64,000 bases of DNA, taken from positions 4,402,001-4,466,000 of the forward strand of contig NC_135892.1 in the NCBI RefSeq assembly GCF_964194155.1, in the 5' to 3' direction. Shown piece by piece: positions 42,601-46,203 of the stretch. Each line of letters begins with the position of its first letter. Within the stretch, counting starts at the first letter, position 1. Source of the DNA: Cetorhinus maximus (lineage: Eukaryota). The translations under genes and the position numbers were made by a program. The notes beneath the pieces were generated by a model. The model saw nothing but the letters and a program-made list of their open reading frames with translations. It made no database searches and was not told the DNA's origin.

Positions 42601-45600
42601 TTACTCAAATCTTTGATACCTTGCCCTCCCAGGGTAATCTGAGGTAGACGGGGCACTTTTCAGGGCCAAATCTGATGGCCTAAGGCTCATTCATGAGTTT
42701 ACATGATATACAGGGTGAAATATCTGATCATGGTAGCCATTATCCTGCAGGATACCATTGATGATCCCTATTTTGGCATCAAGCTTGCATGGTGAGCAAA
42801 TAGCTTAGGCTTTATTTACAAAGTTGCCAATAAGACCAATCTTATAGTACGTGGAACTGTAAGAATCTCAACACATATATTGACCAGTGGGAAAAAAGCA
42901 AAGAACTGTGGATGCTGGAAATCCAATACAAAAAAAGAAACAGAAATACCTGGAAAAAATCAGCAGGTCTGGCAGCATCGGCGGAGAAGAGCACAGTTGA
43001 CGTTTCTGGGTCATGAGGACTCGAAACGTCAACTGTGCTCTTCTCCGCCGATGCTGCCAGACCTGCTGAGTTTTTCCAGGTATTTCTGTTTCTGTTTTTG
43101 TATTGACCAGTGAAGGTAGGCTTACAATTGACTGTGGTAAAGAGCCCCCTGGCATATTTCTCAACTAATACTTCATGGAAGTGGAGTTCATTTAACTGCA
43201 CCATTTCAAAGGTGAATTTGAGTGCAGGATGGAGCCCATAAAGACATGTAAGGAAAATATTATATGCAGCTGTGGATTTAAATATAGCGAAAGTATTATC
43301 CACGTATCAAACACGTGAGGGGGTAGGAAGTTGGGTGTCAATCCATCGAAGGCAGACCCGTTTCTCATGGAACCTAACAAAGATGTTTGAGAGAGCTGGG
43401 CGTAGATGGGCATACATGGTGTCATTAAAACTGAACTCAACTGCGCGAGTTGCCGAATTCATAAGTTCAATGAATTCTGATTCATGGTGGCGGGTCTAGA
43501 TCGCCATGATATAGTGCTGCAGCACAAATATCTATGGCTTAAGTGGAACATTGCTAACTTATTCACCAATGTCAAATGAGCACATGGACACAGCATTGCT
43601 ATCGATATGCAGGTCCTGTATTGCCTTCGCAATTGTGGAGGAATCCTTCACTTTGTGTCTGGAAAACTTGTTAAAACTGGTTGTAACAATTCACCCAACC
43701 AGTTTCAACATGTCTCTATTTTTCAGCAATGCTCAAGTTCTGTACTACCAAACAATTATTTAATAATGTCCCTGTGAAACATCTTGGGATATTTCAAACA
43801 TTTAAGGGTGCTATATAAGCAATTGTTGAGATGAAAACTCTACTTTCTGTGATTTGAAAGGCAAGAGCAAAATTGGAACTCAGAGAAAGTGCAACAAAAA
43901 GTGATGCAGAAGATGTGGTGGATATCATGAAATATAGGTAAGGAGGCTTTTCAAAATTATCACTTAATCTTGGAGTGAGAAGAGGCAAACAAAAAGCATA
44001 AGGGTACAAAATATGCAAAGCTACAACATATGCAAGGTTACAGCATAGAACAAATAGTGCACAATAAACACAGGCTAATTGAACTGTTGACCGTGAACAT
44101 AGTTAGGAGGAAGAAATTAATTGATATCTCTGTCTCAAGAATGTGCATGGATCTGACGCGTTTTAGTGATGTACACAACATTTGGAGGGCAATGGCTACA
44201 AATAATCTTCATTTGAATATTACTAGTGATTTTTTTAATAGCAAAGAAAAGCTTATAACTAATGTCTACTGAAGGATCATTTCCCCATTTTTAAGATTGC
44301 AAGAGTCTACGAAATAAGGAAATTTATTATTTTTATGAAGTAAAGCACAGAAGTTTTCAATTTTACTGCCCAAAAAGCTTTGTTGGAGTCGTTGGGGTCT
44401 GACAGGAAATTGGACGTTTGGAGGAATAGTGAAAACCAGCCCAGAGTACTCCAATCCAAAAGTTGGGTTGGAACTTCATGCTAATTTAGAAAATCCCGTC
44501 TGGGTCAGTAATAGGATTTATCTGAAATATTGAGAGGTTGATGGAGTGGTTTGAATGGTAGAACAGATCATGAGAAGATCCAGGTAAGAAGGTCAGATTG
44601 GAAATGGGTAGAAGACGGCTCTTCTGTTCCATCAAGGTCTGGGAGCTATTAGTATGCTGAACACATTTGATAGTCGTAGGTTACAGAAATATGGAAGTAC
44701 CATGATTACTGTGCTGCAGACCCTTACACTTGCTTAGCATTTTCCAGCTATATCTTTTTACCAGTAATGTAATAAAATAAAATTCATGAGTATTCACTTC
44801 TAGCTCATTTCCTATTGCACATATTTGTGCTCAGCTCTTTTCTACAATTGTTTTTTATGCTAATGTGTTTCTGTTTAATTCGTTCACTTCTGGGTTTTCC
44901 ATGCTTGGTCTCCAAGGTAGGTAATAATGTTGCCTACTTGCCTCTTGACATCTCAGTCCATCTGTAGCCCAGGTAATTCTCTGGGCATCAGTGTGAAGCT
45001 TTAAATACTTTCTGGTAAGCTTTAACTCTTTTTTAAAAAAAAACTAATATTTGAGTACCCCCAGGATTAAGTAAGCAACAATGTATTTATTTCACAATTT
45101 TTTTCTTAATTTACCTTCAATAAATCACTTTCATGAAACAAATATCTTATTTTAACAGCTTATTCGATACTTTCTCTGATGAGCTCGGAAGATTAGATTT
45201 TCAGCGCTCACAGCATGGTTCTGGTATGAGCAAACGATCCCAGGCAAAAAGATTTGTGGCTGCACTGAATAGGATAGCAGAACAGACTTTTAAAACTCTC
45301 TTTGAATTTCAACAACTCAAGCAATTAGCAAGAGAAATACAGATACAGGTAAATACAGAGATAAAAACAAAAAACTACTGCGGATGCTGGAAATCCAAAA
45401 CAAAAACAGAATTACCTGGAAAAACTCAGCAGGTCTGGCAGCATCGGCGGAGAAGAAAAGAGTCGACGTTTCGAGTCCTCATGACCCTTCAGCAGAAGGT
45501 TCTGCTGAAGGGTCATGAGGACTCGAAATGTCGACTCTTTTCTTCTCCGCCGATGCTGCCAGACCTGAGTTTTTCCAGGTAATTCTGTTTTTGTTACAGG

Positions 45601-46203: not shown

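Follow-up and report, generated by a model that had tools for sequence, protein, structure and literature searches.

Penelope-like elements typically carry an inverted truncated copy and a tail of 30–40 bp at one end, according to PMC8557442, and inverted pLTRs with 8–10-bp duplications are mentioned for them in PMC3846280. The Penelope element of the anole cleaves both strands of AT-rich DNA and extends them, and the two start sites of its reverse transcription delimit the tail (PMC11167929). Transposons have also been connected with the origin of introns: in the AGGT route, as outlined by Yenerall and Zhou (2012, PMC3443670), a transposon enters an AGGT of coding sequence without disrupting it. 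Recursive splicing, in turn, is stated in PMC10156609 to occur in smaller introns too, at low frequency, with conventional lariats outnumbering recursive ones in human introns under 1 kb. When two strong donors lay at least 45 nt apart, the downstream one was used almost exclusively in the test substrates described by Hodson et al. (2012, PMC3413131). Direct repeats can furthermore produce false introns during reverse transcription, as exemplified by the 8-nt repeats of CD19, where PMC8240250 gives a false intron in over a quarter of cDNA reads and in 0 direct RNA reads. In the open literature we found no report that combined recursive splicing with a transposable element and a target site duplication, none that combined intron gain, target site duplication, AGGT and a transposon, and no relevant match for duplicated donors together with retrotransposons. 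A search of the open library for Penelope, shark and palindrome returned nothing on the element family described below by title or beginning of the abstract.

Here we characterize a site at which a young Penelope-like insertion duplicated the donor of the last intron of MCM8, a gene tied to fertility and DNA repair (PMC10415141). All coordinates refer to the window, i.e. the whole stretch of 64,000 nt of DNA that was analysed. The penultimate coding exon of MCM8 (45159..45348, + strand, 190 nt) matches residues 749-810 of the human protein (E 8.6e-22) and holds the first part of the winged-helix domain (domain match to WHD_MCM8 positions 1-53). The last coding exon (46111..46203, + strand, 30 aa and a stop) matches human residues 812-840 (E 2.2e-10) and holds the end of the domain (domain match to positions 52-80); the winged-helix domain is encoded jointly by these two exons. 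Since the exon at 46111-46203 carries the stop, the intron between 45348 and 46111 is the last one of MCM8, and with the insertion it measures 762 nt. The last exon is intact and shows one listed coding difference from the related organism C and one more near the exon end.

The 12-mer TACAGGTAAATA was found at exactly 45344-45355 and 45595-45606, with no third + strand copy in the window, and the identity between the two copies extends neither way. Copy 1 (45344..45355, + strand; it may include C45356) spans the original donor CAG/GTAAATA, where the slash marks the splice junction: the exon ends at 45348 and the intron starts at 45349. Copy 2 (45595..45606, + strand) reads CAG/GTAAATAT, is directly preceded by the element's own AATTCTGTTTTTGT, and represents both a candidate recursive site and a competing donor, subsequently termed donor 2. 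A first-pass annotation of this DNA had described the 12-bp duplication across the MCM8 donor with its second copy behind the U-rich end of the element, as well as a GT...AG unit of 251 nt at 45349-45599, and both descriptions are borne out by the sequence. The 239 nt between the copies consist of a 43-nt tail and two inverted arms of ~99 nt. The tail (45356..45398, − strand) is unpaired and single-copy, and constitutes the extreme 3′ end of a Penelope-like element lying antisense to MCM8. It is followed by the left arm (45399..45497, − strand, 99 nt), which corresponds to the Penelope 3′ region and is likewise antisense to the gene, and by the right arm (45500..45595, + strand, 96 nt), an inverted copy without the tail; apart from 1 substitution and a 3-nt gap the arms are identical. 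RNA of the insert is predicted to fold with −191.6 kcal/mol (z −24.9), and 0 of 200 shuffled sequences were equally stable. The insertion point lies 7–8 nt inside the intron, and donor 1 retains its native exon context and the first 7 intron bases. The real acceptor (46108-46112) also reads CAG/GT, which places CAGGT at all three junctions (45348, 45599 and 46110).

Searching the own genome yielded 558 candidates, 40 of which were scored, the best at 97–99% identity. The insert matches termini behind endonuclease ORFs at 97–99%; its positions 1-142 match, at 97.9%, a terminus of locus L025 that follows ~400 nt after an ORF encoding GIY-YIG. Because the same 142 nt terminate L025, the insert consists of the 3′ end of the element, in antisense orientation relative to MCM8, with an inverted copy behind it that lacks the last 43 nt, and the Penelope origin assigned to the hairpin by the first-pass annotation holds. 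PF01541 (GIY-YIG) was detected in L025 with 24.4 bits (cut-off 22.6), reached 22.1 bits in L030, just below the cut-off, and was not found in the partial L023 frame. These three loci contain just the last 262–365 aa of the ORF, in which Pfam gave no RT match; the L025 frame opens with an RT-like YIDD motif. Among 29 other loci, which were the best matches to tail plus left arm and so contain the tail by selection, 21 have a candidate duplication of 9–15 bp in the fetched DNA, and 14 of the 21 are fold-backs. Thirteen of these 14 fold-back copies end at most 7 nt from the same U-tract, and in 13 of the 14 the shorter arm lacks 38–49 nt. Tail, fold-back, U-rich end and a 10–15-bp duplication are routine for this element family. 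Both arms at MCM8 carry the minority variant GTCGAC (4 of 29 loci, against 22 with the other form), which fits one template for both arms.

The family is also present elsewhere in the window, with three more insertions at 21756-21854, 42878-43112 and 55869-56498 that have clean duplications of 12, 12 and 15 bp, respectively; the second and third are inverted-repeat copies, and about a dozen older fragments are scattered across the window. One older single-armed fragment of about 80% identity (46242-46341) lies just 3′ of the MCM8 stop, antisense to the gene; in unspliced RNA it might form a duplex with the right arm of the insert. On its sense strand the element has an acceptor-donor junction motif of its own, TTTTTCCAG/GTAATT, in every intact arm (45570-45586, 21829 and 56430 on the + strand; 45416 and 55904 on the − strand). 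Elsewhere in the own genome, the loci L010, L043 and L057 are near-perfect palindromes of 1.1–1.3 kb from single insertions of the family, each with a 10–15-bp duplication; long double-stranded RNA in introns could arise from such palindromes on a potentially large scale. Three pairs of loci (L008/L023, L021/L028 and L039/L043), located on different contigs or far apart, have near-identical flanks at the insertion point: either the family inserted more than once into a site it prefers within another repeat, or its copies were multiplied along with that repeat. Rfam yielded no hammerhead match at the MCM8 insert, nor in any of three single-ended loci (L025, L027 and L003). By eye, the right arm at 45503-45537 (+ strand, the sense of the MCM8 transcript) contains what we take to be a degenerate hammerhead-like core; self-cleavage by it is unlikely, since the core is base-paired within the stem, truncated at the apex and missed by Rfam. 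Ten Rfam matches of the insert to miRNA precursors were all below the gathering scores and were rejected as reflecting the long stem alone.

The anatomy of the insert suggests how it may have arisen. The GIY-YIG endonuclease of the element would have cut both strands about 12–13 nt apart in AT-rich DNA, and reverse transcription would have begun at two positions of the element RNA with a spacing of about 43 nt. One arm may have been primed at each site, one with and one without the tail, the two being joined head to head, and gap filling across the stagger of the cut would have made the 12–13-bp duplication. The AG/GT at 45599/45600 is a by-product of any such insertion whose duplication contains AGGT.

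We used sequencing runs of the insertion carrier and of relatives to examine whether the insertion is real and the site empty elsewhere. Among 24 listed runs, 4 come from one sample of organism A, the insertion carrier, and contain 94–99% of the sequence words; for 12 runs of organisms B and C, either DNA or unlabelled, the figure is 33–35%. RNA of organism A is not represented among the 24. In organism C, a contig of run X6 measuring 2274 nt matches 44900-45356 over its positions 1164-1607 and 45608-46235 over its positions 1608-2241. Its positions 1607 and 1608 are contiguous, i.e. exactly 251 nt are absent and a single copy of the 12-mer is left, from which it follows that the repeat is a true target-site duplication. 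The first-pass annotation had proposed a look for the empty site in related species, and organism C provides it, with one 12-mer and no insertion rather than two copies in the absence of the element. Both the empty site and the spliced junction described below were taken from the table of contig pieces, as the joint tables are dominated by other element copies. Over about 1070 aligned bases, organism C and the window show 36 substitutions, and as C lacks the insertion, the latter is most simply younger than the split from C. All 12 substitutions in the left piece fall before 45289; organism C therefore has C at intron position +8, and the duplication, judged by these mismatch counts, may be 13 bp, with GTAAATAC rather than GTAAATAT as the ancestral junction. 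In organism C, a probable-RNA contig connects 45345 directly with 46108; allowing for the shared CAG, this corresponds to 45348^46111. It is the sole spliced contig and comes from the species without the insertion.

In organism A, contigs of run X2 cover both insertion junctions (44900-45379 and 45572-46235) with 0 differences. Run X2 may stem from the assembly's own sample, so this counts against an assembly error and not as an independent individual. For a second individual, capture run X23 gives about 4 reads over the exon and a depth of zero at 45620-45664, which hints weakly at a filled allele but is too thin to count. Run X24 contributed no sequence at the locus, and in run X5 of organism B (48% read) the MCM8 locus is not covered by contigs. 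Palindromes are prone to assembly error, and no single contig spans the whole insert. Nevertheless, with both junctions recovered without differences and the same anatomy seen in 14 of 29 other element copies, we consider it exceedingly improbable that the hairpin is an assembly artefact; the same applies to 12-mers that would be a chance repeat predating the insertion, against which the single 12-mer of organism C and its lack of exactly 251 nt speak.

The first-pass annotation had gone further and interpreted copy 2 as a working recursive splice site. Judged by linear sequence, copy 2 would make a fair acceptor: of the 14 positions at −18 to −5 from 45599, 11 are pyrimidines, compared to 9 at two real acceptors nearby, and it ties for the best among 37 YAG/GTRA sites on both strands of the window, site strength being expressed as simple counts. 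Candidate branch points are A45568 and A45582, at −31 and −17 from the AG; together with the element's own CCAG/GTAATT (45578/45579) and the U-tract (45583-45595) they lie within the stem (45565..45595, + strand). The acceptor-like sequence is thus predicted to be buried in a stem of ~96 bp: the unpaired probability at 45560-45600 is at most 0.06, and both branch candidates and the U-tract are predicted to be at least 94% paired. Opening would cost 20.3 kcal/mol for the U-tract, 29.8 kcal/mol from A45582 to the AG and 47.9 kcal/mol from A45568 to the AG, compared to 8.7–9.7 kcal/mol for the real acceptor. According to prefix folds, the stem would already reach −172 kcal/mol once the transcript extends to 45585. 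These energies are equilibrium predictions that ignore helicases and A-to-I editing. The earlier worry that the hairpin might hide the pyrimidine tract is supported by these predictions. The alternative suggestion, that pairing of the arms brings the splice sites together, fails at the sequence level: donor 1 is separated from the stem by 50 A-rich nt with 32% pyrimidines, a stretch that offers no substitute tract. The AG at 45578, moreover, sits between the −31 branch candidate and the AG at 45599, and among 9 GTR sites listed in 45601-46110 none is a consensus-like donor that could define a recursive exon.

We also asked whether the motif occurs more often than by chance. Genome-wide, the element end is followed by YAG/GTRA within 9 nt 51 times, and by the non-splice control YAGCTRA 42 times, a control that may be inflated since 11 of the 42 matches are one identical string. 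A second control, YTGGARA (174 matches), was dropped as it resembles the element's own continuation. Thirty of the 51 motif loci were examined: 17 show a duplication in the fetched DNA, and in 14 of the 30 the duplication puts AG/GT on both sides of the element, with the tail behind the first copy. Eleven upstream open frames at 9 loci gave 0 host Pfam families and one weak match to a retroelement protease, in a scan that would miss short or Pfam-less exons, and thus yielded no other host donor hit by the family. The junction of U-tract and YAG/GTRA is an automatic by-product of the family anatomy, and what is unusual here is solely that the target was the real donor of a real gene. With the motif near the control rate and both tract and branch points predicted to be paired, a working recursive site is not supported. 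Neither does the locus represent intron gain via AGGT, as had also been proposed: AG/GT was already the exon/intron boundary and nothing exonic lies between the two copies, which excludes it. Removal of 45349-45599 would at most split the intron around a zero-length exon.

How, then, is the intron spliced? Because the acceptor-like sequence of the young Penelope-like insertion is predicted to be buried in the stem, we consider it likely that the intron is still removed in one step, from 45348 to 46111. The left arm would be transcribed first, the right arm would zip up while emerging, and the zipped stem would keep U2AF and U2 off the tract and the branch point. Against removal in one step stands donor 2, which shares its 9-mer with donor 1, agrees with the donor consensus at 10 of 11 positions versus 9 of 11 for donor 1, and, lying just outside the stem, is predicted to be as accessible (4.3 versus 4.2 kcal/mol). 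A sizeable share of transcripts could be spliced from donor 2 (45599^46111), which we regard as rather unlikely; this donor competition, overlooked by the first-pass annotation, is a likelier consequence of the insertion than recursive splicing. It would lengthen the exon from 190 to 441 nt, with 77 element-encoded codons open up to an in-frame TAA (45580..45582, + strand), and replace the last 30 residues of the winged-helix domain of MCM8 by the 77 element-encoded ones. As the stop would lie 17 nt before the last junction, within the distance where NMD usually does not act, the resulting mRNA, carrying a 96-bp double strand, would probably escape NMD. An internal exon of 441 nt that is largely double-stranded is a poor substrate for exon definition, the last exon is intact with few differences from organism C, and loss of the end of the domain should be selected against. 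On the other hand, the hairpin cuts the effective donor spacing to about 55 nt, and PMC3413131 reports an intron-proximal preference among duplicated donors; the preference described there holds for high complementarity to U1, whereas both donors at MCM8 are without a G at +5.

The unit 45349-45599 could also be excised on its own as a GT-AG intron, either before or after donor 2 is joined to the last exon. Both orders would give normal mRNA and both require the acceptor at 45599. The pyrimidine count of this acceptor, its tied best rank among the 37 sites and the branch candidates at −17 and −31 make excision conceivable, as does the low-frequency recursive splicing in smaller introns mentioned in PMC10156609. 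We nevertheless judge two-step excision improbable: tract and branch points are predicted to be buried at a cost of 20–48 kcal/mol, bypassing the stem would leave only 50 A-rich nt that contain no tract, the AG at 45578 intervenes after the −31 candidate, 45601-46110 lacks a consensus-like donor for a recursive exon, and the site is young, absent in organism C and arises at about the control rate. It is similarly doubtful, and in our view very unlikely, that fold-back Penelope insertions seed newborn recursive sites, with the spliceosome opening the stem at MCM8 and removing the 251-nt unit. If it were so, transcripts that choose the downstream donor would be rescued, and the birth of a zero-length exon could be dated here, the empty-site relative serving as control.

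The first-pass annotation had suggested a search for 45348^45600 junction reads as a check of recursive splicing. Such a read is not diagnostic, because the empty allele and slippage of reverse transcriptase give the same sequence. Given the GT-AG ends of the segment, a filter for non-canonical ends would miss the reverse-transcription artefact. Hairpins with direct repeats of 10–15 bp, sometimes with GT-AG ends, should yield false introns in cDNA-based annotation of this genome.

Most likely the locus matters little: a single insertion from an abundant family fell by chance on a donor and was tolerated. It nonetheless constitutes a natural experiment on the choice between two identical donors split by a long stem, with a close relative as empty-site control. 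If donor 2 were substantially used, there would be a form of MCM8 with a transposon-encoded C-terminus; if the acceptor at 45599 were used, it would show the birth of a recursive site.

Compared with described systems, the insert resembles endonuclease-bearing (EN+) Penelope-like elements in its origin from the 3′ end of an element with GIY-YIG at the close of its ORF, in its head-to-head inverted copy with an extension at one end alone, and in its short duplication in AT-rich DNA. Unlike full elements it comprises just 142 nt of the element and no ORF, and its tail measures 43 nt versus the 30–40 nt given in PMC8557442. With AGGT intron gain (PMC3443670), the locus shares AG/GT duplicated on both sides of the element and a precisely removable GT...AG unit; it differs in that the AGGT already belonged to a donor, leaving no exon split and no intron gained, and in that structure is predicted to disfavor the acceptor. 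The U-tract followed by CAG/GTAAAT inside an intron, i.e. a juxtaposed YAG/GT with an upstream pyrimidine tract, is a feature of recursive sites and zero-length exons (PMC10156609). Unlike these, the site lies in an intron of 762 nt at 251 nt from the donor, is not conserved, being absent in organism C, and has a tract that is predicted to be double-stranded, so that folding predicts neither an accessible tract nor an accessible branch point. With respect to the duplicated donors of PMC3413131, two equal donors more than 45 nt apart likewise face one acceptor, whereas here the exon is a natural internal one, the donors are without a G at +5, and the spacer is almost all double strand. Finally, a stable hairpin between direct repeats is also found in the falsitrons of Schulz et al. 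(2021, PMC8240250), with repeats of 12 nt here versus 8 nt in CD19; unlike the CD19 falsitron the segment is intronic with canonical GT-AG ends, and 43 nt separate copy 1 from the stem base.
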